A DNA stretch of 64,000 bases from an uncultured bacterium (GTDB lineage Bacteria; Margulisbacteria; WOR-1; CAVSGV01): positions 194,001 to 258,000 of the forward strand of contig CAVYHE010000008.1 in the NCBI GenBank assembly GCA_963768305.1, read 5' to 3'. Each line of letters starts with the position of its first letter. Positions within the stretch are counted from its first letter, which is position 1. The translations under genes were made by a program, and so were the position numbers. Shown here in pieces: positions 6,835-29,178 of this stretch. The notes below the pieces were generated by a model, which saw only the letters and a list, made by a program, of their open reading frames with translations, was not told where the DNA came from and ran no database searches.

Positions 6835-7341
6835 TTAATGATAACGTTTCACGCAAAACTTTTCGATGCTTACGGGTTCATTTTCCCGGATGCCCGCTTT
6901 TTGCCTGCAGATATTTATCTGCTGCTCCGCGGTATCCACGCCTTCCAGGTCGGGAAGCAAAAGCCCGCGCTTCATCCCGCAACTTACTATTATACCGTAC
7001 TTTTTCGGATCGAGCTCACTGATATTTGCCGGCTCCGGCAAGGTAAGCACGTCCACCGATATCTCGAGTCTCGGTATTTCTTCCGCCTCTACCGGCGGGA
7101 ATCTCGGATCATCGGTTGCCGCATGAATGGCATTAGCGATGATCTCCCCGGCAATGTTTTGTTTCGTAGGAAGGAAAGTGCCTATGCAGCCCCGGAGCAT
7201 GCCGTTCTTGTGTAGCGAAACAAAAACCCCTGCGCGGTCTTTTAATTCAGTAGGCAGGTCCGAAGGAATGTCGATCTTTTTCCCTTTATTGATAAAAGCC
7301 TCAATGGCTTTTTTGGCTAATTCAACCTGCGGGCTTGACAT
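6835..7341 (-). CDS. AMMECR1 domain protein (AmmeMemoRadiSam system protein A-like)
   Basis: Conserved RGCIG motif (LRGCIGTF). The likely start is M at 7341 (MSSPQVELAKKAIEAF). The longer ORF in the track overlaps the upstream gene. Confidence 0.8.
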   Translation of the reverse strand: MSSPQVELAKKAIEAFINKGKKIDIPSDLPTELKDRAGVFVSLHKNGMLRGCIGTFLPTKQNIAGEIIANAIHAATDDPRFPPVEAEEIPRLEISVDVLTLPEPANISELDPKKYGIIVSCGMKRGLLLPDLEGVDTAEQQINICRQKAGIRENEPVSIEKFCVKRYH

Positions 7342-8192: not shown

Positions 8193-9564
8193 ATGACATT
8201 AAAAATAAGCATTTCCGGGATCCGCGGGATAAGCGGGGATTCTCTGACGGACGAGGTCGTTTCCGATTTTTCAAAAGCGTTCGCATCCTTCATTAAAAAA
8301 GGGATCATCGTGATCGGCCGCGATCCCAGGCCTTCCGGCGAAAAGATAAAGGACATATTCATTTTAGATCTGAATTCCCTCGGCTTGGACGTTATCTACC
8401 TAGGCATCTGCCCCACGCCCACCGTCCAGTTCATGGTGAAGCATCTTAAAGCCGACGGCGGAGTGGTGATCACCGCCAGCCACAATCCAGCGCAATGGAA
8501 CGGCCTTAAATTCGTGAGAAAAGATGGCATCTTTTTGAACGCGGATGAGGCTGGAAGACTTGTCAGGTCATATGAGGAAAAGAAATTCATATCTTCTGAA
8601 AAACGGGGCAGCGTGAAGATACAAGAATCACCTTTAGAGCCGCATATCAATAAAGTTCTTCAATGCGTGGATGTTCAGTCGATAATCAAAAAGAAATTCA
8701 AGGTGGCCATCGACAGCTGCAACGGCGCAGGCTCGACGATTACGGTCAAGCTTTTGAAAAAACTGGGCTGCGATGTCGTCGAATTGAACACAAAAGAGAA
8801 CGGGGCTTTCCCCCATAATCCGGAGCCTATCCCTGAAAATTTGACGGGTCTGTGCAGCAAGGTCAGGGAAAGCCAAGCTGATATTGGGTTTGCCCAGGAT
8901 GCTGACGCGGACCGGTTGGCTATCGTAACCGAAAAAGGAGAAGCCCCCGGAGAAGAATATACTTTAGCAATTGCTGCCAACCACATATTGGAAAAACTAC
9001 AAACTCAAAGCTCAAAGTCCAAAGCTCAAAATAAGCTCAAAATCCCAAATCCAAAAATTGTCACTAATTTATCTACTAGTATGATGGTTGACGATATTGC
9101 AAAAAAATACGGGGCTAAAGTCATCAGGACAAAGGTCGGCGAGGTGAATGTCGCGGAGGAAATGGTGGAACAAAAGGCCGTGATCGGCGGGGAAGGCAAT
9201 GGCGGCGTGATGTATCCCATCATCGGATACGACCGCGACAGCTTGATCGGTATAGCGCTTATCCTTGAAGCACTTGCGGCATCGGACAAGACCATTTCCG
9301 ATATCATTGATTCGCTGCCGAAATATTCGATCGTAAAAAAGAAGGTCGATTGTTCATCAAAGGCTGAAGTTGATTCATTGTTAAGACAAGGTTGGGACGA
9401 AATTCGCGGGAGAAAAGCTTGATCTCACGGAAGGGATAAAAGTGATATTCAAGAACGCCTGGGTCCACGTGAGGGCCTCGAATACCGAGCCGGTGGTCAG
9501 GATAATCGCCGAAGCTGAGACAAAAGAAAAAGCGATGGAATTGATAAAAAAGGCTATCGATTAA
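8193..9564 (+). CDS. glmM: phosphoglucosamine mutase / phosphohexomutase (frameshifted)
   Basis: TASHNP phosphoserine-loop motif and a GEGNGG sugar-binding loop are present. The conserved C-terminal domain (KLDLTEGIKVIFKNAWVHVRASNTEPVVRIIAEAE) lies in the +1 frame after about 9408. A single-base insertion in GGGAGAAAAG splits the gene. Confidence 0.8.
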
Positions 9565-9565
9565 C

Positions 9566-10768
9566 CTATTTCTTCAAGCTCTCCATTATCCTCGATTTCG
9601 GAAGATCCAGCAAGTTCGCGGTCATATCCTCGGAGCCGGTCTTTTTGAAATAGATGCCCGACAGAGTTTTTTCCACGCTGTTCTTGAAATCCAGAAGGTC
9701 TTCGGGACGGGATGCCTGAAGGCCGTCGAAAACCATTTTGGAGCTCACCTGGATATCCTTAAGCGTTATCACGCCGCCTTCGCAAACAAGCACGGCATTT
9801 TCAAGAACGTTCTCAAGCTCCCTGTAATTTCCCGGCCAGCTGTAGTCGCACAGCATCCCCAGGGCATCCAGCGAAATGCTTTTAACGCTCTTTCCGTATT
9901 TATCGGAGTAGTCGGCTATATACGCTGCCAGCATATCCGGCATGTCCTCAACGCGCTCCTTGAGCGTGGGAACGGCTATTTTCTCCCAATCGGCAAAAAT
10001 AGGATTTTCCACGTGATCGTGAACGCCCGCCGTAATCGTAAGGTTCCCCTTAAGCGCCTTTCCTCTTATGTAATCCAGTATGCTGGCCTGATGTTTTTCA
10101 TCCACGGCGTTGAACCTGTCGAAATAAATGATATCTGACGATGCTATCGCTTCCTGCAGGACCATCCAGAATATGCTTTCCAGGCTTTCTTTGCGAAATA
10201 CAAGCATGTCCAGCGAGGTCAGCTTCCTTTTTATCCCGGAATGATCGCGTATGACCTTCGCTAGGCTTAGAGTGTCAATGCCGGATTCGGAGATAAAAAG
10301 GATGTTCCTGCGCTCTTTTATGGCATATTCAAGGTTTTTGACCAGCGCTCTTATCCTGCCTCCGCCGCCGACCAGCCATTTTTCATGGCCAAAGACCAGC
10401 CGTATGCCGGCGCCCTCCCCCCGCGAAAGGTTCGCTTTTACCGACCCAACTATCCTTTCGCTTAATGCCGGCTTTTTTATGAAATCCGCCACGCCGAGCC
10501 TGGAAGCCTCCACCGCTTCCGGTATGGTGACGTTAGAAGAGAGCATTATGACAGGCGAGAAAGGCGAGAGCCTTTTTATTTCTTTGTAAAGTGCTATGCC
10601 TTTCGCACCCTTCATATCGTCGTCGATGATGACAAAAATGCCGGGATGTTCTTCAGCCTTTTTTAGGACATCCGATCTGCTGACGGCGGATTCAATATTG
10701 TAAGATTCCCTGAGCGGGGAGATGACCGCGGGGTCGTCGCTAAAAACCAGGATATCGTGCTTCTTCAT
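9566..10768 (-). CDS. response regulator with degenerate sigma-54-activator (AAA+) domain, no HTH
   Basis: The N-terminal receiver domain has an FVIIDDDMKG acid pocket and a conserved Lys in DFIKKP. The central domain is homologous to NtrC-type enhancer-binding proteins (FGHEK and WPGNYRELENV). However, Walker A is SESGIDTL (no GK), Walker B is DRF not DE, and GAFTGA is replaced by WLVGGGG. Confidence 0.65.
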   Translation of the reverse strand: MKKHDILVFSDDPAVISPLRESYNIESAVSRSDVLKKAEEHPGIFVIIDDDMKGAKGIALYKEIKRLSPFSPVIMLSSNVTIPEAVEASRLGVADFIKKPALSERIVGSVKANLSRGEGAGIRLVFGHEKWLVGGGGRIRALVKNLEYAIKERRNILFISESGIDTLSLAKVIRDHSGIKRKLTSLDMLVFRKESLESIFWMVLQEAIASSDIIYFDRFNAVDEKHQASILDYIRGKALKGNLTITAGVHDHVENPIFADWEKIAVPTLKERVEDMPDMLAAYIADYSDKYGKSVKSISLDALGMLCDYSWPGNYRELENVLENAVLVCEGGVITLKDIQVSSKMVFDGLQASRPEDLLDFKNSVEKTLSGIYFKKTGSEDMTANLLDLPKSRIMESLKK

Positions 10769-10850
10769 TATTATCCTTCCTTGCCTCGATTATATCACCG
10801 GCCGGGAAGTGGGTAAAGTTATGACCAAGGCAAGGATGACATGGTCCGTA

Positions 10851-11585
10851 TTATGAAGCATTTTTAAAAAGACCTTCAATGTTCTTGATCTCATCGATCG
10901 TGTTGACCCCGAGCGTTTCATTCGGGTCCTCAGCCTTATAAGCAATGACCGTTAAATCTTTTCTTTTTAAGATCCCTATGACATCGGTAAGATAATATTC
11001 CTTTTGCGCGTTGTCCGGTTTGACCTCGTTCAAGGCGGCGAACAGGGCGCGAGAACTGAAACAGTATGTTCCGGTATTTATTTCCTTTATCAGCAATTCT
11101 TCGGCTGTCGCGTCTTTTTTTTCAACTATCTTGACCACCCGGCCCGAATTGTCCCTGACTATCCTGCCATAAGAACCCGGGTCCGGCAAGACAGCTGTCA
11201 TGACAGTTGCGGATACTGAAGGATCTTTTTGATGAAAATCGATCAATGCTTTCAGAGTATCGGAAGTGATGAGCGGCATATCCCCATTCAATACCAGGAC
11301 GACCATGTCCCCTTTCATGAGCGGGGCGGCCTGAGAGACCGCATGGCCTGTGCCCAATTGTTGTTTTTGTTCAACGAAAGTCACGTCAAAGCCTTCACAC
11401 TCTTCTTTTACAAGTTCGGCTTTGTAGCCGACAACGACAAAAACCCTGTCAAGCTTCAACTCATTTACCGCATGCAGGACGCGGACGATCATCGGTTCGC
11501 CCATGACAAGATGTGAAACTTTCGGGAGGTCGGATTTCATCCTGACGCCTTTTCCTGCGGCAAGGATGATCGCTGCGGTTTTCAT
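10851..11585 (-). CDS. sugar-1-phosphate nucleotidyltransferase, GlmU N-terminal-domain-like (no acetyltransferase domain)
   Basis: 244 aa. Nucleotide-binding signature MKTAAIILAAGKGVRMKS...LPKV with a GlmU-like uridylyltransferase core. Neighbour of the glmM-like gene. Confidence 0.75.
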   Translation of the reverse strand: MKTAAIILAAGKGVRMKSDLPKVSHLVMGEPMIVRVLHAVNELKLDRVFVVVGYKAELVKEECEGFDVTFVEQKQQLGTGHAVSQAAPLMKGDMVVLVLNGDMPLITSDTLKALIDFHQKDPSVSATVMTAVLPDPGSYGRIVRDNSGRVVKIVEKKDATAEELLIKEINTGTYCFSSRALFAALNEVKPDNAQKEYYLTDVIGILKRKDLTVIAYKAEDPNETLGVNTIDEIKNIEGLFKNAS

Positions 11586-11680
11586 ATGAAGTGATTATAG
11601 TTTTAAAAGTCCGTCTTGACAAGAAAATATGTAAAATGATAGTGTATCTATGTTAAATAAATATGGGGTGGGGGTGAAAA

Positions 11681-15717: not shown

Positions 15718-16911
15718 TTGAAAATGCAAAATGCAACCCTTGTAAAGCAAAATATTAAGGATTATTCTGCGCCAGAATATTTATTTGATGATTTAATTGA
15801 TTTTGAACAACCATTTTTCAATGACCAAATTATTACTTATATCGGAAATAAAAGAGCTTTGTTACAATTTATTAATGAAGGCATTGTCACTGTAAAGAAT
15901 CGTTTATCAAAAAAATCGTTGATTATTTTTGATGGTTTCTCAGGGAGTGGGGTAGTCTCTAGACTGTTGAAGTATCACGCAAAAGAACTCCACGTAAACG
16001 ACTTAGAAGATTATTGCGAGATCCTAAATAAATGCTATTTAAGCAATAAATCAGAAGTCGATTTTGATTTCATTAAGTCCAATATTGATTGGCTTAATAA
16101 GAACAAACTAATCTCACACAAAAAAGCCCCTTGTTTTATCCAGTCAAATTATGCGCCGGCAAATGATAATAACATCAAAAAAGGTGAGAGGGTTTTTTAC
16201 ACAAATAGAAATGCAAAAATAATCGACAATCTAAAATATTTGATCAATAAACATATTGATAGACAGAAAAGACATTTTTTCCTCGCCCCATTAATAGTAA
16301 AAGCATCAATAAACACCAATACTTCTGGGGTTTTTAAGGGGTTTCATAAGAAAGATGGCATAGGATGGTTTGGTGGGCGAGGCGAAAATGCTTTAACAAG
16401 AATAAAAAGAGAAATACATTTAGATGTGCCCGTTTTTTCGGAAAAAGAATGCAAAGTAATTATCACAAAAGAAGACGTTAATAAACTTGTTAAGTCCAAT
16501 AAAATACCAAAAGAATATGACCTGGCATATTTTGATCCCCCTTACAATCAACACCCTTATGGCTCCAACTATTTTATGCTTAATATTATTGCCAATGAAA
16601 AAAAAGCGATTGAAATACAGGATGGGGTTAGCGGTATAGCAAAAGACTGGAATAGATCTGCCTACAATAAGAAGCAGCAAGCCGAAGTTGCATTTGAAGA
16701 ATTAATTCAGAATACCAGGGCAAAATATATTTTAATATCATATAACAATGAAGGAATAATCGACCAATGCAAATTAAAAATGATTTTAGAGAAATATGGG
16801 AAGGTTGATGTTATTGAAAAGGAATATAATACATATAGAGGCTCGAGAAATCTAAATAATAGAAATATTAAAGTTAGGGAGATGTTGTGGATTTTGGAGA
16901 AAAATAAATAA
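15718..16911 (+). CDS. N6-adenine DNA methyltransferase, Dam/D12 class
   Basis: N-terminal YIGNKRALL motif, motif I FDGFSGSG and motif IV DPPYN, in alpha-class order. The gene is very AT-rich compared with its flanks. Confidence 0.8.
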   Translation: MKMQNATLVKQNIKDYSAPEYLFDDLIDFEQPFFNDQIITYIGNKRALLQFINEGIVTVKNRLSKKSLIIFDGFSGSGVVSRLLKYHAKELHVNDLEDYCEILNKCYLSNKSEVDFDFIKSNIDWLNKNKLISHKKAPCFIQSNYAPANDNNIKKGERVFYTNRNAKIIDNLKYLINKHIDRQKRHFFLAPLIVKASINTNTSGVFKGFHKKDGIGWFGGRGENALTRIKREIHLDVPVFSEKECKVIITKEDVNKLVKSNKIPKEYDLAYFDPPYNQHPYGSNYFMLNIIANEKKAIEIQDGVSGIAKDWNRSAYNKKQQAEVAFEELIQNTRAKYILISYNNEGIIDQCKLKMILEKYGKVDVIEKEYNTYRGSRNLNNRNIKVREMLWILEKNK

Positions 16912-20247: not shown

Positions 20248-22954
20248 ATGGCAAAGGCAAGAAAAGGCTCAGGCTCATCAAAGGGAGGAAAAAAATACGT
20301 TTATTACTTCGGCGACGGAAAGGCCGAAGGCAACGGGCAGATGAAGGACCTTCTAGGGGGGAAAGGCGCGGGTCTCGCCGAAATGACGAACACCGGCGTG
20401 CCGGTGCCGTCTGGTTTCACCATCACGACAGAGGTCTGCAACATATTCTATAAGGTGGGGAGCAAGGTCCCTGCGGAAGTCACAAAACAGCAGGCAAAAT
20501 ACGTCGAGACCCTTGAGGGTTCCATGGGGGCCAAGCTCGGCGACCTGCGAAATCCCCTTCTGGTTTCGGTAAGATCGGGTTCGAAATTCTCAATGCCGGG
20601 CATGATGGACACCATCCTTAACCTTGGACTTAATGACGAGACTGTCCACGGCCTGATAACGAAAACAAAGAACGAAAGGTTCGCTTATGATTGCTACAGG
20701 CGCTTCATCCAGATGTTCGGCAATGTCGTCCTGGAGATGGAAAAGAACGAATTCGAGCACATATTGCAGGGCAAAAAGGAAGAGCTCGGCGTGATACTTG
20801 ACACGGACCTCAAGGCGGATGACCTGAAGGACCTGATATTAAGATACAAAAAGACCGTGAAAGAATCGACTGGAAGCGATTTTCCCCAAGACGCAAGAGT
20901 GCAGCTTGATATGGCGCGCGACGCCGTCTTCAAGTCTTGGATGAACCCCAGGGCAATCACTTACCGGAAGCTGAATGATATTCCGAACAACCTCGGCACC
21001 GCCGTCAACGTCCAGGCCATGGTCTTCGGGAACATGGGCGATGATTCGGCCACCGGCGTGGGATTTACAAGGAACCCCGCGACCGGGGAGAATAAATTCT
21101 ACGGCGAATACCTTACGAACGCCCAGGGCGAGGACGTGGTCGCCGGCATAAGAACGCCTCAGCCGATAACAAAGCTTGAAAAGGAGATGCCGTCGGTTTA
21201 CAAACAGCTTAGGGCGATAACCTCAAAGCTTGAAAAACACTACCGCGATATACAGGATTTCGAATTCACCATACAGAAAGGCAAGTTATACATGCTGCAG
21301 ACCAGGACCGGCAAGAGGACCGCTCCGGCGGCCGTAAGGATAGCCGTTGAGATGGTGGATGAAGGCCTTATAACAAAAGAGGAAGCGATACTCAGGATAG
21401 ATCCGGCGAGCCTCGATCAGCTTCTCCATCCGGTCATCGATCCTAAAGCCAAGGTGAAGGTTATAGCAAAAGGCCTTCCCGCTTCGCCGGGAGCCGCCAC
21501 CGGGATTGTGGTGTTCACCGCCGATGAAGCCGTGAAAAGAGCAGCGGAAAAGACGATACTTGTCCGCAATGAGACCTCTCCCGATGATATCCACGGCATG
21601 GACGCTGCGCAGGGGATCCTGACCGCAAGGGGCGGCATGACATCCCACGCCGCCGTGGTCGCGCGCGGAATGGGGAAATGCTGCGTTGCCGGCTGCGAGG
21701 AAATAAAAGTAGACGAAAAAGGAAAAAAGTTCAGCGTAAAAGATTGCGTTGTCAAAGAAGGCGACTGGATCACGCTTAACGGGACCACGGGCGAGGTCAT
21801 ACTTGGCCGCGTTCCTACGATCGAGCCTTCCCTGTCAGGAGAATTCGGCGAAGCTGATGAAGTGGGCTGATTCATTCAGGAAAATAGGCGTCCGCGCGAA
21901 CGCGGATATCCCTCATGACGCGCATGTAGCGAGAGGTTTCGGGGCGGAGGGAATAGGACTTTGCCGCACGGAACACATGTTCTTCGCCGAAGACAGACTG
22001 CCTCACATGCAGGCAATGATCATGGCAAAGACCGAGCCGGACAGGCGAAAAGCGCTTGCAAAACTTTTGCCGATGCAGCGAAGCGACTTCATGGGCCTGT
22101 TCAAGGAAATGAAGGGATATCCCGTCACGATAAGGCTGCTCGATCCGCCTCTACATGAATTCCTGCCAAAGAGGGAGGATTTGATGGTGGAGATCGCTGT
22201 CCTTAAGGCGACCGGGGGCGACAAAGAAAAGATAGCCCAAAAAGAAAAAATACTGGAAAGAGTGGAAGATCTGCATGAACTGAATCCCATGCTTGGGCAT
22301 CGCGGCTGCCGCCTTGGCATCGCTTATCCGGAAATAACCGAGATGCAGGCTCAGGCCATCATAGAAGCCGCATGCGAGCTTAAAAAAGAAGGGATGAAGA
22401 TCATCCCCGAGATAATGATACCTCTCGTCGGGCACATTAACGAGCTGAAGAACCAGAAAACGATAATAAAGAAGATCGCGGAAGAAACGATAAAGAAATA
22501 CGGAAGCAAGGTGGAATATAAGATCGGCACAATGATAGAGCTTCCCAGGGCGGCTGTCACCGCCGATGAGATCGCCACGGAAGCGGAATTCTTCTCGTTC
22601 GGAACAAATGACCTAACGCAGACCACCTTCGGGTTCAGCAGGGATGATGTCGTCAAGTTCCTTAACAGCTATATTGACAAGGGCATACTGGAAAAAGACC
22701 CGTTCGCGACGCTCGACCAGGGCGGGGTGGGCAAACTTGTGAAGATGGGGGTCGCGGGAGGCAGGTCGGTTAACAAGCACTTGAAGATCGGTATCTGCGG
22801 AGAGCATGGCGGAGATCCGGCATCGGTGGAATTTTGCCACAGGACCGGTCTTAATTATGTAAGCTGCTCTCCATATCGAGTTCCGATCGCGCGCCTTGCG
22901 GCAGCGCACGCGGCAATAAAAGAAAAGTCAAAGGTCCATTATACGACAAAGTAG
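20248..22954 (+). CDS. ppdK: pyruvate, phosphate dikinase (frameshifted)
   Basis: PPDK N-terminal ATP-grasp region, phosphohistidine region ([15 protein letters not shown]) and C-terminal PEP/pyruvate domain. An extra G near 21848 (GAATTCGGCGAAG versus expected GAATTCGCGAAG giving [15 protein letters not shown]) splits the gene into 20248-21870 and 21749-22954. Confidence 0.9.
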
Positions 22955-23175: not shown

Positions 23176-24207
23176 ATGCAGATCCGCAAAGAGATCGAAG
23201 AACGAGAAGATATTTTCCTTTCACCATACGCGGTCAGATCAAAGAACTCCAAAGGCCGGGACAAAAAAGAAAAAGAAGACAGCATAAGAACGTGCTTTCA
23301 AAGGGACAGGGACAGGATACTTCATTCCAAAGCTTTCAGAAGATTAAAACACAAGACCCAGGTTTTCATTTCACCCGTAGAGGACCATTACAGGACAAGG
23401 ATGACCCATACGCTGGAAGTATCCCAGATAGCAAGGACAATCGCGCGCGCGCTTTGCTTGAACGAGGACCTGACGGAAGCGATAGCGCTTGGACATGACC
23501 TTGGGCACACTCCTTTCGGCCACGCCGGGGAAGATGTGCTTAATGATATTCTGAAAACGCTCGATGTCGCGCCAAAAAGGTATTTTATGCATAACGAGCA
23601 GAGCGTCAGGGTGGTGGAAGTGCTTGAAAATCACGGCAAGGGCTTGAACCTTACCTGGGAAGTACGCGACGGGATAATGCATCATCCGCAGAAAGACAAG
23701 CAGCTTCCTGCAACACTCGAGGGACAGATAGTTCGCTATGCCGACCATATCGCATATATCAGGCATGATATCGAGGACAGCATCCTGGCGGGCGTCATAA
23801 AAAAGAAAGATCTGCCGAAAAAACACACGAAAGTGCTCGGGGAAAACATTTTGGATACCATCATCCCGAATATCATCGAAAAAAGCAGAGGCAAGAACAG
23901 GATACAGATGGACAAGCATATTGAAGATGCGATGAACGGATTATATGATTTTCTTTATGAGAAGGTTTACATCAGCCCCACGGCAAAAGGAGAGGAAAAA
24001 AAGATCCCGGCCATGATAACCCAGCTGTTCAAGTATTATCACGAAAACCCGGAAAAGCTTCCCTATTACAAGAAAAAATGGACAGAGAAAGAGATAGTAC
24101 AGAACATAGTTGATTTTATCGCAGGGATGACCGACAGGTACGCCACGAACAAATTCACGGAGATCTTCGTGCCCAATGAATGGCGCGCTAATACGGACAT
24201 AAAATGA
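23176..24207 (+). CDS. dgt: dGTPase-like HD-domain deoxynucleoside triphosphate triphosphohydrolase
   Basis: RTRMTHTLEVSQIAR...GHDLGHTPFGHAGE HD motif. The stop overlaps the dnaG start. Confidence 0.85.
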   Translation: MQIRKEIEEREDIFLSPYAVRSKNSKGRDKKEKEDSIRTCFQRDRDRILHSKAFRRLKHKTQVFISPVEDHYRTRMTHTLEVSQIARTIARALCLNEDLTEAIALGHDLGHTPFGHAGEDVLNDILKTLDVAPKRYFMHNEQSVRVVEVLENHGKGLNLTWEVRDGIMHHPQKDKQLPATLEGQIVRYADHIAYIRHDIEDSILAGVIKKKDLPKKHTKVLGENILDTIIPNIIEKSRGKNRIQMDKHIEDAMNGLYDFLYEKVYISPTAKGEEKKIPAMITQLFKYYHENPEKLPYYKKKWTEKEIVQNIVDFIAGMTDRYATNKFTEIFVPNEWRANTDIK

Positions 24208-25985
24208 TACCCAGCTCCACGATCGATGAAATAAGGAATAAAACCGATATCCTTCAGATTGTCGGCGAGTACGTACCGCTTAAAAAAAGAGGCAAGAACT
24301 ATCTTGGGCTGTGCCCTTTTCATTCCGAAAAAACGCCTTCATTCACGGTAAGCCCCGATAAGCAGATATTCCATTGTTTCGGGTGCAACGAGGGAGGGAA
24401 TGTCTTTTCATTCCTGATGAAGATGGAGAACATAAGCTTTGCGGAAGCCGTGGAACTTCTCGGAAGCAAGATCGGGATAACGGTCCAAAAGACCTCAACG
24501 CCTTCAATGACAAAGAATGACAAGGACAAGCTGATAGAAATAATGGAGCTCGCGCAAAGGTTCTACCGGGAGAATCTGGACAGCGAGGAAGGCGCCGTCG
24601 CCCGCGATTACCTGGAAAAAAGAGGGATCTCTGATGGATCCGCCAAAGCTTTCAAGCTCGGTTATTCTTCCAACAAATGGGACAGTCTACTGAACTATCT
24701 TTATAAAAGAGGCGTGGACCGGAAAGATATGGAAAAACTGGGACTGATAATTGAAAGGGCGGACAAGAGCGGGCATTACGACAGGTTCAGGGGCAGGCTC
24801 ATGTTCCCGATATCCGATCTTAAGGGGCGTGTGATCGGATTCGGCGGCAGGGTGATCCCTTCCGGTACTCCTTCCGAGGAGGAAGCGAAATACATAAATT
24901 CGCCGGACTCTCCCATTTACAATAAAGGTTATTCGCTTTACGGAATCGATGTCACAAAAGAAGAGATCAGGAGATCGAGGACCGCGATCCTGGTGGAAGG
25001 CAATGTCGATCTTGTTTCCTGCTGGCAGTACGGGATAAAGAACGTTGTCTGTCCTCTGGGCACAGGTTTCACGCCGAATCAGGCAAAGATAATGCGCAGG
25101 TTCGCCGATAATGTGATAATCGCTTTTGACCGCGACAACGCCGGCAATGCCGCCACCGCCAGGAGCGTGGATATTTTGAAAGACGAAGGCTTGAACGTGA
25201 AAGTTGCCAGATACGAGGGCGGCAAAGATCCCGATGAGGCACTTAAGGCAAAGGGCGCCGAAGCTTTCCAAAAGTCGCTGAATGAAGCGGTCTCATGGAT
25301 GGAATTCATGGTAATGAATGCTATATCAAAATACAACATAAAAGAGATCGAAGGGCGCGCAAAAGCGGCGAAAGAAGCCGCCCTGATAATAGCGCAAGAA
25401 AAGGACGACTTGATACGAGGAGAATACATCAAGCTTGCCGCGAAAAAGCTGGGATTCGGCACAGAAGATATCGAGTCTGAGGTCAAACGGCTCGGGTTCT
25501 ATACTGAAAAAGGCGGCACGATATCCCTTAGAAGAAGCGTGGAAAAGCCGTCATCCAAGACGGAAATAGCGGAAGAATGTCTTATCAAACTTTCGGTAAG
25601 CAATAAGGAGATCATGGACCTGTTTAAAAAGTCATTAACCTGGCAGGAATTCACCGGGAAAAACACGAGAACGATCGCGGAGTTCCTTCAGGCAGCTGAA
25701 ATTGATGCGGGGGATCCGTCACATTTCATCCTTGAAAATCTTCCGGACGAAGATTCAAAAAAATTATTTTCAAGGATAATGGTTAGCGATATTCCCGCGG
25801 ACAATGTGCAAAAAACAGCGCGGGACTGCATTAACACGATAAAGATATTCCACCTGAAATCAAGGATGGATGGCATAAGGAAAGAGATGGCGGTCGCTGA
25901 AAAAGAGGGCAAATTGCAGGATGTTTCCAGCCTGCACAGGGAATTCGCGAATTTGAACGAAAATTACAGGTCTCTGCAAAATTAA
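24204..25985 (+). CDS. dnaG: DNA primase
   Basis: Zinc-ribbon region CPFHSEKTPSF...FHCFGCNEGGNVFSF and a TOPRIM region (EGNVDLVS...DRDNAG). Confidence 0.9.
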   Translation: MIPSSTIDEIRNKTDILQIVGEYVPLKKRGKNYLGLCPFHSEKTPSFTVSPDKQIFHCFGCNEGGNVFSFLMKMENISFAEAVELLGSKIGITVQKTSTPSMTKNDKDKLIEIMELAQRFYRENLDSEEGAVARDYLEKRGISDGSAKAFKLGYSSNKWDSLLNYLYKRGVDRKDMEKLGLIIERADKSGHYDRFRGRLMFPISDLKGRVIGFGGRVIPSGTPSEEEAKYINSPDSPIYNKGYSLYGIDVTKEEIRRSRTAILVEGNVDLVSCWQYGIKNVVCPLGTGFTPNQAKIMRRFADNVIIAFDRDNAGNAATARSVDILKDEGLNVKVARYEGGKDPDEALKAKGAEAFQKSLNEAVSWMEFMVMNAISKYNIKEIEGRAKAAKEAALIIAQEKDDLIRGEYIKLAAKKLGFGTEDIESEVKRLGFYTEKGGTISLRRSVEKPSSKTEIAEECLIKLSVSNKEIMDLFKKSLTWQEFTGKNTRTIAEFLQAAEIDAGDPSHFILENLPDEDSKKLFSRIMVSDIPADNVQKTARDCINTIKIFHLKSRMDGIRKEMAVAEKEGKLQDVSSLHREFANLNENYRSLQN

Positions 25986-25986
25986 G

Positions 25987-26014
25987 TGAAATTTCGAGCG
26001 ATTTATCACGATAA
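25987..26014 (+). promoter_or_regulatory. SigD/FliA-type promoter (TGAAA-N17-CGATAAT) immediately upstream of rpoD
   Basis: GTGAAATTTCGAGCGATTTATCACGATAATA. Same motif and spacing as the nine other instances in this window. Confidence 0.5.
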
Positions 26015-26036
26015 TACATAAGTAAAGGAGATAAAA

Positions 26037-27091
26037 ATGAAAGAAGGAACGAATTTAAAGACGTTGAAGAATGCCGGCGAGAAGAAGGGATATCTTACTC
26101 CGGAAGAGATAATGTCCATTTATCCGGAGCCGGAGAAGAACATTGCCGAGATAGAGGAGCTTCTGACGCACGGCATAGAAATATCCGAGAACAAAGATAA
26201 GAAGATAGCGCCTTCTCCGGAAGAAACGAATCTTGACGTCACCGAAACAGAAGTAAAGAGCGCCGGCATAGACGATACCGTCAGGATGTACCTGAGGGAG
26301 ATAGGGAAATACAAGCTTCTTTCCCCCACGGACGAGATAGACTGCGCAAGGAAAGTTCGCGCTGGAAGCCTGAAGGACAAGCACAGGCTTACGAATTCGA
26401 ACCTGAGGCTGGTCGTTTCAATCGCGAAAAAATATACGGGCCGCGGGATGCTTTTCCTTGACCTGATACAGGAAGGCAACCTGGGATTGATAAGGGCTGT
26501 GGAAAAATTCGACCACAGGAAAGGGTATAAATTCAGTACTTACGCCACGTGGTGGGTAAGACAAGCAATAACGCGTTCTATAGCCGACCAGGCGCGAACC
26601 ATCAGGATCCCCGTTCACATGGTGGAAACCATGAACCGCCTGAGGAAGGTTTCGCGAACGCTCCTGCAGCAGCTGGGAAGGCGTCCCACCGAGGAAGAAA
26701 TAGCGAAAAGGTCCAGGATGTCGGTGGACAAAGTACGGGAGATAATAAAGATCTCGCAGATACCGCTTTCGCTTGAAATGCCTGTCGGTGACGAGGATTC
26801 TTCGCGCCTTGGCGATTTTGTGAAAGACACCGCCGTTCAGGCGCCGGATGAAGTGGTCCTTCATGGGCTATTAAGGGAAGACCTTGAGGAAGTAATGTCA
26901 TCGCTTTCTGACAGGGAAAAGACCGTGCTTAAGCTAAGGTTTGGCCTTGATGACGGCCAGCCGAGGACCTTGAAGAAGTTGGAAAAGTTTTCAATGTCAC
27001 CCGCGAGAGGATACGTCAGATAGAAGCGAAAGCCTTGAGGAAATTAAGGCATCCTACCCGCAGCAAAAAACTTAAGGAATATCTTAGATAA
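26037..27091 (+). CDS. rpoD: RNA polymerase sigma-70 factor (primary sigma, frameshifted near C-terminus)
   Basis: Region 2 ([27 protein letters not shown]...[17 protein letters not shown]) and region 3 are present. Region 4.2 ([28 protein letters not shown]) lies in the -1 frame. One missing G near 26975 breaks the gene. The tracked ORF ends early at 27023. Confidence 0.9.
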
Positions 27092-28209: not shown

Positions 28210-29178
28210 GTGAAAAAAGAAAACCTGCCCGAACTTGGAAAGATACCTCCCGAATTTTTCGACCGCGTCATTTATCCACGGTTAGGCGCAAAAAATAAGA
28301 ACATCATGATCGGTCCGAGACATGGGGTCGATTACGGAGTATTAAAGGTCGGCTCAAAGTACATGGCGATGTCCACCGATCCATTCTTCATAGTCCCGCA
28401 ATTAGGCTTTATGAAAGCCGCGTGGTTCGCTTTTCATATTATATGCAGCGATGTCGCCGTATCGGGGCTGAAACCTGAATATCTGGCGATCGATCTTAAT
28501 CTGCCGCCCGAAATGACAGAAGCTCAGCTGGAAGAGATGTGGGAGACCGTGCACGAAGAATCAAAAAAGTACGACATTAGCATAATCACCGGTCATACCG
28601 CGCGATATACCGGATGTAATTATCCGATGGTCGGAGGAGCGACGGCGATAGCTATCGGCACAAAGAAAGAATTGCGCGGCCCTTTCAGGGTAAGGACCGG
28701 CGACCGGATAGTCATTACAAAAGGGCCGGCAATAGAAACGACCGGACTTTTAGCCGTCTTATTTCCCGACAGGTTCATCAGGGCAGGCGGAAAAGCTTTT
28801 CAGAAAGAAGCCGCTGGCGTTTTTGATCAGATGTCAGTGATGGATGATTGCGCGATAGCACGTGGATTGGAAGGGGTTCGAGTGATGCACGACGCGACCG
28901 AATGCGGCATATGGGGCGGGCTTTATGAAATGGCAAGAGCCGGAAATTACGGTCTGATGATAGAAGAAGAGCTGATCCCTATTCAGCCGGTGATCAAGAA
29001 AACAGCTGAACTGTTCGATTTTGACCCGTTCTGCGCAATAAGCGAGGGGACTTTACTGGCTATAGTTGATAAAAAAGAAACGGACAAGTTAATCTCAGCG
29101 TTCAGGAAAAATAGAATCTTAAGCGCGGTCGTCGGCGAAGTTGTCGAAAGTAAAAAAGGGATAAAGATCAAGAACTGA
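28210..29178 (+). CDS. AIR-synthase-related (PurM-like superfamily) protein of unknown role (HypE/ThiL-like)
   Basis: 322 aa with a PurM-like N-domain (GVDYGVLKVG...AMSTDPF) and C-domain. GTG start. Confidence 0.6.
   Translation: MKKENLPELGKIPPEFFDRVIYPRLGAKNKNIMIGPRHGVDYGVLKVGSKYMAMSTDPFFIVPQLGFMKAAWFAFHIICSDVAVSGLKPEYLAIDLNLPPEMTEAQLEEMWETVHEESKKYDISIITGHTARYTGCNYPMVGGATAIAIGTKKELRGPFRVRTGDRIVITKGPAIETTGLLAVLFPDRFIRAGGKAFQKEAAGVFDQMSVMDDCAIARGLEGVRVMHDATECGIWGGLYEMARAGNYGLMIEEELIPIQPVIKKTAELFDFDPFCAISEGTLLAIVDKKETDKLISAFRKNRILSAVVGEVVESKKGIKIKN

Follow-up and report, generated by a model that had tools for sequence, protein, structure and literature searches.

Here we describe a response regulator encoded on the minus strand at positions 9566 to 10768 of a 64-kb stretch of an uncultured Margulisbacteria genome (contig CAVYHE010000008.1, positions 194,001 to 258,000; the window, with all coordinates below counted from its first letter). 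The central domain of this protein keeps the fold of a bacterial enhancer-binding protein (EBP) after losing the elements by which such proteins hydrolyse ATP and contact sigma-54, and its C-terminal tail is a diverged homologue of the Fis-type helix-turn-helix (HTH). We consider it probable that the regulator belongs with the "atypical EBPs" and controls transcription in response to phosphorylation but independently of sigma-54, like VpsR, HupR or NtrX though in a more degenerate form. Its single complete open reading frame (ORF) can be aligned over its full length (alignment A2, n = 32) to 31 further members of the core family that come from independent assemblies, and its stop lies where all homologues stop. 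The protein is organised as follows, REC denoting the receiver domain:

9566..10768, minus strand: response regulator ORF, 400 aa plus stop
10415..10768, minus strand: REC, aa 1-118 (Pfam Response_reg)
10622-10624, minus strand: phospho-acceptor D49 (site alignment)
10373..10414, minus strand: variable linker between REC and AAA+ domain, aa 119-132, containing FGHEK (10379-10393)
9983..10372, minus strand: pseudo-AAA+ alpha/beta core, aa 133-262 (alignment A1 and AlphaFold)
10268-10291, minus strand: Walker A remnant SESGIDTL, aa 160-167, aligned with GESGTGKE
10148-10183, minus strand: family signature LESIFWMVLQEA in place of the GAFTGA/L1 hairpin (alignment A1)
10112-10132, minus strand: Walker B remnant IIYFDRF, aa 213-219, aligned with TIFLDEI
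9749..9982, minus strand: AAA+ lid, aa 263-340 (Pfam AAA_lid_14)
9809-9838, minus strand: surviving sensor-II motif WPGNYRELEN, aa 311-320
9569..9748, minus strand: C-terminal tail, aa 341-400, with the HTH_8 homologue at about aa 356-400
9569-9676, minus strand: HTH core VEKTLSGIYFKKTGSEDMTANLLDLPKSRIMESLKK, part of the diverged Fis-type HTH

The motifs of the central domain were checked by aligning 16 close relatives with five canonical EBPs (alignment A1), and a HMMER alignment to Brucella NtrX agrees with the resulting assignments. The Walker A lysine is replaced by threonine in the regulator and by V, I, T, C or A across the core subfamily; a site census finds the lysine in 40 of 68 wider-family members and in none of the core subfamily. 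Likewise, the catalytic Walker B glutamate has become arginine, within a family-wide pattern of [ED][NG/R]. An earlier reading of the window from its letters (the original prediction) had recognised both of these losses, and it was also right that the GAFTGA contact loop is gone, although it had sought the trace in the wrong place: the stretch WLVGGGG (131-137) aligns with the IIGxS entry of the AAA+ domain, while the canonical GAFTGA/L1 hairpin (ESELFGHEKGAFTGA...) was lost through a 13-residue deletion and is represented by ESIFWMVLQEA. Two further deletions, both common to the core family, had gone unnoticed, namely one of 14 residues that removes the pre-sensor-I/L2 segment (ERVGG...) and one of 11 residues that removes the arginine-finger segment FREDLYYRL. 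That the ATPase and GAFTGA motifs might merely be shifted was considered and rejected, as a regular-expression search in all six reading frames of the window came back empty and the gaps in the alignments are true deletions.

What survives is the scaffold. AAA_lid_14 is matched over residues 270-340 (E 1.4e-19), the lid region pairs with NtrC1 residues 304-376 in a phmmer search of the PDB, and GNYRELEN stands for the canonical GNVRELEN of sensor II, whose arginine is retained in the core subfamily and mostly gone from the wider family. PF00158 (Sigma54_activat) gives no Pfam match in the regulator, and Sigma54_activ_2 (PF14532) stays under threshold (21.2 bits vs a cutoff of 25). Set against the make-up of a sigma-54 activator, the protein retains an AAA+ fold and a lid with sensor-II GN[VY]RELEN, and lacks Walker A, GAFTGA, the Walker B DE pair, the arginine finger, L2 and a PF00158 match. 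As judged from its sequence, the regulator cannot hydrolyse ATP in the canonical way, because the Walker A lysine, the Walker B glutamate and the arginine-finger segment are gone, and it cannot touch sigma-54 via GAFTGA, because that loop is deleted.

Structure prediction agrees with this picture. In an AlphaFold model of the full-length regulator (110-sequence alignment; mean predicted local distance difference test score, pLDDT, of 86), all five beta strands of the AAA+ core are kept and one unbroken helix (194-210) occupies the canonical L1-hairpin site. Foldseek against the PDB returns NtrC1, NtrX, NtrC4, LuxO, VpsR and FleQ as top matches, and comparison with the AAA+ domains of NtrC1, ZraR, LuxO and FlrC gives target-normalised TM-scores of 0.68-0.72 at a root-mean-square deviation of about 3 Å. 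From the model and the Foldseek superposition it therefore follows that the fold has outlasted the elements for catalysis and sigma-54 contact; the central domain derives from the AAA+ module of an EBP.

The receiver, for its part, looks functional, as had been proposed. Response_reg is matched over residues 20-109 (E 2.7e-13), and the features of an NtrC-type receiver are all present at canonical positions in the alignment: an acidic pocket (D11/D12), the phospho-acceptor aspartate (D49), Ser/Thr (S77) and lysine (K99). According to the site census, 66 of the 68 wider-family members retain D49, and K99 is retained equally often. The linker that follows has a pLDDT of about 60, falling below 50 at residues 117-120, is unconserved among relatives and evolves almost neutrally (ratio of nonsynonymous to synonymous substitution rates, dN/dS, of 0.6-0.9). 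FGHEK (126-130), which had been counted among the EBP hallmarks, lies in this unconserved and fast-evolving segment (dN/dS 0.74), so that its resemblance is due to chance; the other such hallmark, WPGNYRELEN, holds up as sensor II. The best NCBIfam and PDB sequence matches of the whole protein belong to the NtrC family (ZraR, NtrX, GlrR, NtrC and Aquifex NtrC1), are restricted to REC and the lid, and fall far under the family cutoffs. Kinship with GlrK/GlrR, which controls glmY/glmS and was prompted by the amino-sugar context of the gene, was considered and rejected, the GlrR match being REC-only and far below cutoff.

The regulator had also been described as lacking a C-terminal Fis-type HTH, and this claim did not survive. 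The last ~45 residues align with the HTH_8 domain of canonical EBPs and keep its register, A384 being invariant in both groups. With hhalign, the core-family tails match canonical tails with P 1.8e-4 over 45 columns, while the tails of the wider family match canonical HTH_8 tails at 97.4% probability (E 1.2e-11); the wider-family profile in turn matches the tail of the window regulator, in register, with E 3.7e-7. Pfam HTH_8 is matched directly by 12 of 77 wider-family members (best E 2.1e-7), PF00158 by 60 of the 77, and wider-family members keep an ARFLDIPR..L..R motif that is nearer to the canonical one. At the level of profiles, these comparisons support homology of the tail to HTH_8. The full-length AlphaFold model places helices at 355-377, 380-387 and 391-399, and the tail modelled in isolation has four helices at a pLDDT of 91. 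Its Foldseek list is dominated by the DNA-binding domains of Fis, NtrC4, ZraR and NtrX, but given the small size of the domain the E-values (~1) fall short of significance, and we therefore take it as consistency only. Across the core family, residues A384, L387, D388, P390 and R393 vary little or not at all, and the tail has a dN/dS of 0.08-0.16. An HTH hidden in another frame was a further candidate and is unneeded; no frame change is called for, since the ORF ends as all homologues do. The tail is thus a putative DNA-binding domain, on the strength of its homology and its predicted helix-turn-helix.

This degenerate architecture is shared by a large family. A word-indexed search returned 34 close relatives (42-100% identity), all of about 400 aa and annotated with REC and lid only, after which the score drops from 327 bits to the 116 bits at which canonical EBPs set in. 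A profile search of 1.84 billion representatives added ~95 further clusters at 50% identity, of 405-444 aa and matching end to end, none of which has GAFTGA, the Walker B DE pair or the arginine-finger motif; the whole family comes to ~100 clusters at 50% identity. Residues E197, F200 and W201 of the E..FW..LQE signature that replaces the sigma-54 hairpin are invariant or nearly so throughout (site census). All family members with source names are Candidatus Margulisiibacteriota, and the closest named relatives of the leucyl-tRNA synthetase (LeuRS) encoded in the window (80% and 74% identity) belong there too; the phylum assignment was drawn from these two sources. Against its nearest kinase-bearing relative (L003), the regulator has an overall dN/dS of 0.088, and its pseudo-AAA+ core a dN/dS of 0.054 at 90% amino-acid identity. 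The overall value is no higher than those between kinase-bearing pairs (0.12-0.17), and every domain but the linker lies at 0.05-0.2, all of these values being approximate with dS saturated. Because the degenerate state is itself conserved and purifying selection acts on it, we are dealing with a true pseudo-ATPase, as had been suggested, and not with a decaying gene.

Atypical EBPs without GAFTGA have been found to act at sigma-70 promoters, namely VpsR of V. cholerae, HupR and NtrC of R. capsulatus, NtrC of Caulobacter, NtrX of Brucella, TyrR of E. coli and PhhR of P. putida; their retained features were taken here from the literature and general knowledge. Like them, the regulator is derived from the NtrC/EBP lineage and has no GAFTGA. 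The Rhodobacter and Caulobacter NtrC proteins lost the motif by L1 deletion, some of the group have non-consensus Walker motifs (Walker B of VpsR is ND), VpsR, HupR, NtrX and NtrC keep REC, and the C-terminal HTH is kept in the group; the structures of VpsR and NtrX are among the best Foldseek matches of the regulator. The combination typical of the group, a GAFTGA-less AAA+ domain of EBP type with a retained HTH_8-homologous tail, is recognisable in the sequence of the window protein. Unlike the known examples, however, the regulator has also lost L2/pre-sensor-I, the arginine finger, Walker B and, throughout its subfamily, the Walker A lysine; PF00158 is undetected, the HTH is far more diverged and slightly truncated, and the protein comes from an uncultured phylum.

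With canonical NtrC-family regulators, which are its best matches in both sequence and structure, the protein shares the domain order REC, AAA+, lid and HTH_8, the last as a diverged homologue (as in Aquifex NtrC1, 1NY5/4L4U, ZraR and AtoC), and the AtoS/ZraS-like partner kinase of its relatives is a further likeness; unlike them, it has no catalytic or sigma-54-contact determinant of any kind. FlgR of Helicobacter and Campylobacter and CtcC of Chlamydia are short NtrC-like proteins with an active AAA+ domain, GAFTGA included, and no HTH, the kind of protein that the original prediction implicitly envisaged. The window regulator is the reverse case, with a dead AAA+ domain and a retained, diverged HTH.

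The genetic neighbourhood bears on both the input and the output of the regulator. The features around it are:

11594..11622, minus strand: predicted sigma-70-type promoter of the GlmU-N operon, TTGTCA-17-TATAAT (eight-locus alignment)
~11614-11622: palindrome CTTGTCAAG, a conserved -35 element that reads TTGTCA for GlmU-N and TTGACA for the divergent RRM gene
10851..11585, minus strand: GlmU N-domain-only gene (GlmU-N), 244 aa, uridylyltransferase domain, first gene of the operon
10790..10861, minus strand: kinase scar MLHNTDHVILALVITLPTSRPVI with its stop, an in-frame 23-codon mini-ORF whose ATG overlaps the GlmU-N stop
10789..10817, minus strand: predicted sigma-70-type promoter of the regulator, inside the 3' remnant of the kinase gene (consensus-based)
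8193..9563, plus strand: glmM (phosphoglucosamine mutase), convergent with the regulator, +1 frameshift near 9383-9386

In the core family, the operon runs from GlmU-N through a histidine kinase to the regulator, with glmM convergent downstream; upstream on the opposite strand lie rsfS, an LCP transferase, yqeK and an RRM gene, and beyond glmM come LigB/Memo, AMMECR1 and argC-argJ-argB. Even in a Margulisbacteria metagenome-assembled genome whose regulator is just 31% identical, the kinase-regulator pair adjoins glmM, LigB, AMMECR1 and argCJB. The flanking genes had been correctly named as glmM and an N-domain-only glmU, and the amino-sugar (UDP-GlcNAc) cluster proposed for them exists to this extent, but it belongs to a more extensive housekeeping block that is itself conserved. 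Of the ~450 positions in the NCBIfam GlmU models, GlmU-N matches only 2-238, with an E-value of 2e-85 and a score under the cutoff. It is without the left-handed beta-helix acetyltransferase domain, as in all core-family loci examined.

The kinase of the relatives (HisKA_7TM, GAF, HisKA and HATPase_c; 741-976 aa), also described as of 7TM-GAF/PAS type, has a catalytic core most like those of AtoS and ZraS, the partners of NtrC-family regulators. It lies directly upstream of the regulator in 9 of 11 distinct related loci, including all three of the closest relatives checked for context (76-80% identity), and its start overlaps the GlmU-N stop. In the window, GlmU-N and the regulator are separated by 82 bp and the kinase is absent. 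Neither tblastn with the kinases of three relatives nor an H-box regular expression found it elsewhere in the 64 kb, and REC and EBP AAA+ hidden Markov models match nothing in the window besides the regulator ORF. A comparison of the junction with L003 and L007 identifies the scar as the first ~12 and last ~11 codons of a 974-aa kinase, still holding the predicted promoter of the regulator. Read from this junction, the kinase was removed here by an in-frame deletion that spared both the regulator promoter and the Shine-Dalgarno sequence. In a more distant locus (L005, P0032), the kinase was lost at a different junction with the regulator and its -10 element kept, and the two losses are independent.

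Several variations in this part of the operon were seen along the way. Ahead of its regulator gene, one of the three closest relatives has a pair of paralogous 7TM-GAF kinases in tandem (L050, 1-4981), and in two loci (L001/L008) the kinase is shorter (741 aa) and lacks the first 7TM module. At the L005 locus (positions 7309-7334 and 8636-9808), which lost its kinase at the other junction, an unannotated ORF of 390 aa is inserted in the space separating regulator and glmM, and the L005 regulator bears a 13-residue insertion within the degenerate AAA+ core.

Both operon promoters are assigned from their agreement with consensus and stand as predictions. That of the regulator consists of a -35 element TTTACC (10812-10817), a 17-nt spacer and an extended -10 element TGATATAAT (10789-10797), followed by the Shine-Dalgarno sequence AGGAAGGA. 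The -10 element (TATAAT) is found upstream of the regulator in 9 of 9 aligned loci, both kinase-less loci included, with the TG of the extended -10 missing in one (L048). The second promoter lies in the 95-bp divergent region between the RRM and GlmU-N genes (11586-11680), in which eight loci share the palindromic -35, a TATAAT toward GlmU-N and, toward RRM, a conserved ATACACTAnCA block where TGATAGTGT may serve as an extended -10. The window also encodes the housekeeping sigma-70 factor, confirmed by the classic macromolecular-synthesis operon order of dnaG directly followed by rpoD (24204-27023, plus strand).

Of sigma-54 the window shows no sign. A six-frame translation of the 64-kb window contains neither an RpoN box nor G[AS][FY][TS]GA, no canonical EBP is present in the window, and -24/-12-like sites (TGGCAC-N5-TTGCW) number 15 against 24.6 expected, so that there is no enrichment. 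A literature search on sigma factors in Margulisbacteria found nothing relevant. Margulisiibacteriota is the phylum sibling to Cyanobacteria, which to our knowledge lack sigma-54; for the sister phylum this is only suggestive.

Taken together with the behaviour of its atypical relatives, these data suggest by analogy that the regulator would act at sigma-70 promoters, for which the conserved sigma-70-type operon promoters and the presence of rpoD in the window are indirect support. Phosphorylation of D49 may shift the oligomeric state of the protein through the pseudo-AAA+ and lid module, which would serve as an oligomerisation or allosteric scaffold. The phosphoryl group would come from the adjacent kinase in the relatives, and here perhaps from another donor, unless the regulator acts unphosphorylated. 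The oligomeric change would then place the C-terminal HTH on DNA, allowing the regulator to activate or repress sigma-70-dependent promoters with neither ATP hydrolysis nor sigma-54; likely targets would lie within or close to its own conserved neighbourhood, namely amino-sugar and cell-envelope genes. HupR is reported to be active when unphosphorylated. One may speculate, on the same logic, that kinase loss leaves the Margulisiibacteriota regulator constitutively active, an idea that fits the two independent kinase losses.

Several observations weigh against an atypical EBP that binds DNA. Pfam HTH_8 gives no match to the tail of the window regulator or of its subfamily, and an HMM of canonical tails scores the window tail at just 2 bits. 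The turn glycine is Asp388, the equivalents of the NtrC recognition-helix Arg-Lys pair are Glu396 and Ser397, and the protein terminates directly after the recognition helix. Neither the RRM/GlmU-N intergenic region nor the sequence upstream of the regulator gene yielded an operator for the regulator or a conserved operator-like repeat; the conserved intergenic elements are explained by back-to-back sigma-70-type promoters, and no separate inverted repeat was identified. The dS saturation noted above loosens the selection argument, and the assembly is of imperfect quality, with housekeeping genes frameshifted in no fewer than two cases (glmM and a ppdK-like gene).

The frameshifts deserve a closer description. 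For glmM, tblastn returns two high-scoring segments in different frames (8193..9422 and 9385..9563), the shift being a one-nucleotide insertion relative to the L003 orthologue; it is an indel introduced in assembly or else the mark of a genuine pseudogene, in a gene that is normally essential. The ppdK-like gene (20248-22954, plus strand) is split at ~21840-21860 by a frameshift after '...SLSGEF' into two overlapping halves of 540 aa (PPDK_N and the mobile domain) and 401 aa (PEP-utilizers_C); as a second case after glmM, it suggests assembly indel errors. A 2.85-kb in-frame deletion with diverged flanks, such as that of the kinase, is not a typical assembly error.

In a second explanation, which we hold to be somewhat unlikely, the regulator is a pseudo-ATPase adaptor engaged in protein-protein signalling only, for example by sequestering or scaffolding a regulator or GlmU-N/GlmM, with its tail helices a non-binding relic. 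The missing Pfam HTH_8 match in the window subfamily and the Glu, Ser and Asp residues at the recognition-helix and turn positions would suit such a protein. So would the invariant, surface-type E197, F200, W201 and Q205, which replace the sigma-54 hairpin and could form a new protein interface, and the tight linkage of the gene to glmM and GlmU-N across the phylum. Yet a relic would hardly be expected of a tail that is homologous to HTH_8 in register, strongly conserved (dN/dS as given above), predicted with high confidence to form a helix-turn-helix, and closer to the canonical motif in the ARFLDIPR..L..R of the wider family; DNA binding is, furthermore, common to all characterised atypical EBPs. 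The original prediction had favoured action through protein-protein contacts over sigma-54 activation: its departure from sigma-54 is borne out by the lost GAFTGA contact, whereas the absence of a DNA-binding domain, its other premise, gives way to the diverged Fis-type HTH. What it observed holds for the most part, with two motifs misplaced and one HTH overlooked, and what it concluded holds in part.

The same conserved surface admits a bolder and more doubtful proposal, that after sigma-54 loss Margulisiibacteriota turned an ancestral AtoC/ZraR-like activator into a pseudo-ATPase module fixed beside glmM and working independently of phosphorylation, with the E..FW..LQE surface giving a new output. 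The partner in such an output might be, for instance, the RNA polymerase with sigma-70, a ligand, or an enzyme of envelope-precursor synthesis. Phosphorylation-independent action would explain at least two independent kinase losses in which the regulator and its promoter were kept.

It is improbable that the protein is an orphan left functionless by kinase loss and now becoming a pseudogene. The deleted kinase and the frameshifts in the neighbouring glmM and ppdK-like gene could suggest as much, but the regulator ORF is intact and of full length, every phospho-site residue is kept, and its dN/dS against the nearest kinase-bearing relative is not above that of kinase-bearing pairs. The in-frame deletion, moreover, keeps the regulator promoter and Shine-Dalgarno sequence, and L005, which independently lost its kinase, kept both the regulator and the -10 element. 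Finally, a protein still activating sigma-54, whether by a non-canonical contact alone or by joining a canonical EBP in mixed rings as their regulatory subunit, is very hard to credit: the retained EBP fold and lid, the sensor-II arginine of the core subfamily and the NCBI label of one relative ("sigma-54-dependent transcriptional regulator") speak for it, but the L1 GAFTGA hairpin, L2, arginine finger, Walker A lysine and Walker B glutamate are all gone, the window holds no canonical EBP, RpoN box or excess of -24/-12-like sites, and the operon promoters are of sigma-70 type.

Two features elsewhere in the window lie outside this argument. A D12-class N6-adenine DNA methyltransferase gene (15718-16911, plus strand) sits inside the otherwise syntenic block from rsfS to PPDK; it is unlisted at the matching place in the relatives' loci examined and may be an insertion. 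A thiamine pyrophosphate (TPP) riboswitch (Rfam RF00059; 28109-28219, plus strand; 55.2 bits, just above the gathering score) comes directly after a tRNA and immediately upstream of an ORF at 28210..29178.

EBPs that have departed from sigma-54 are few and almost all proteobacterial, and have been considered in the literature as an evolutionary connection between regulation by sigma-54 and by sigma-70. The Margulisiibacteriota family would add to them a phylum-wide, strongly conserved and more extreme case of the atypical EBP, from an uncultured lineage. Labels transferred onto its members include "sigma-54-dependent transcriptional regulator" and "DNA-binding NtrC family response regulator"; at least the former is very probably wrong for these proteins, and tallying them as EBPs would wrongly suggest that a sigma-54 regulon exists. 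The clean deletion of a kinase gene with its regulator kept is, in addition, a hint at phosphorylation-independent activity. By keeping the AAA+ fold while shedding all catalytic and sigma-54-contact elements, the family amounts to a natural experiment on what the EBP scaffold can do alone, be it oligomerisation, allostery or the presentation of a new interface.

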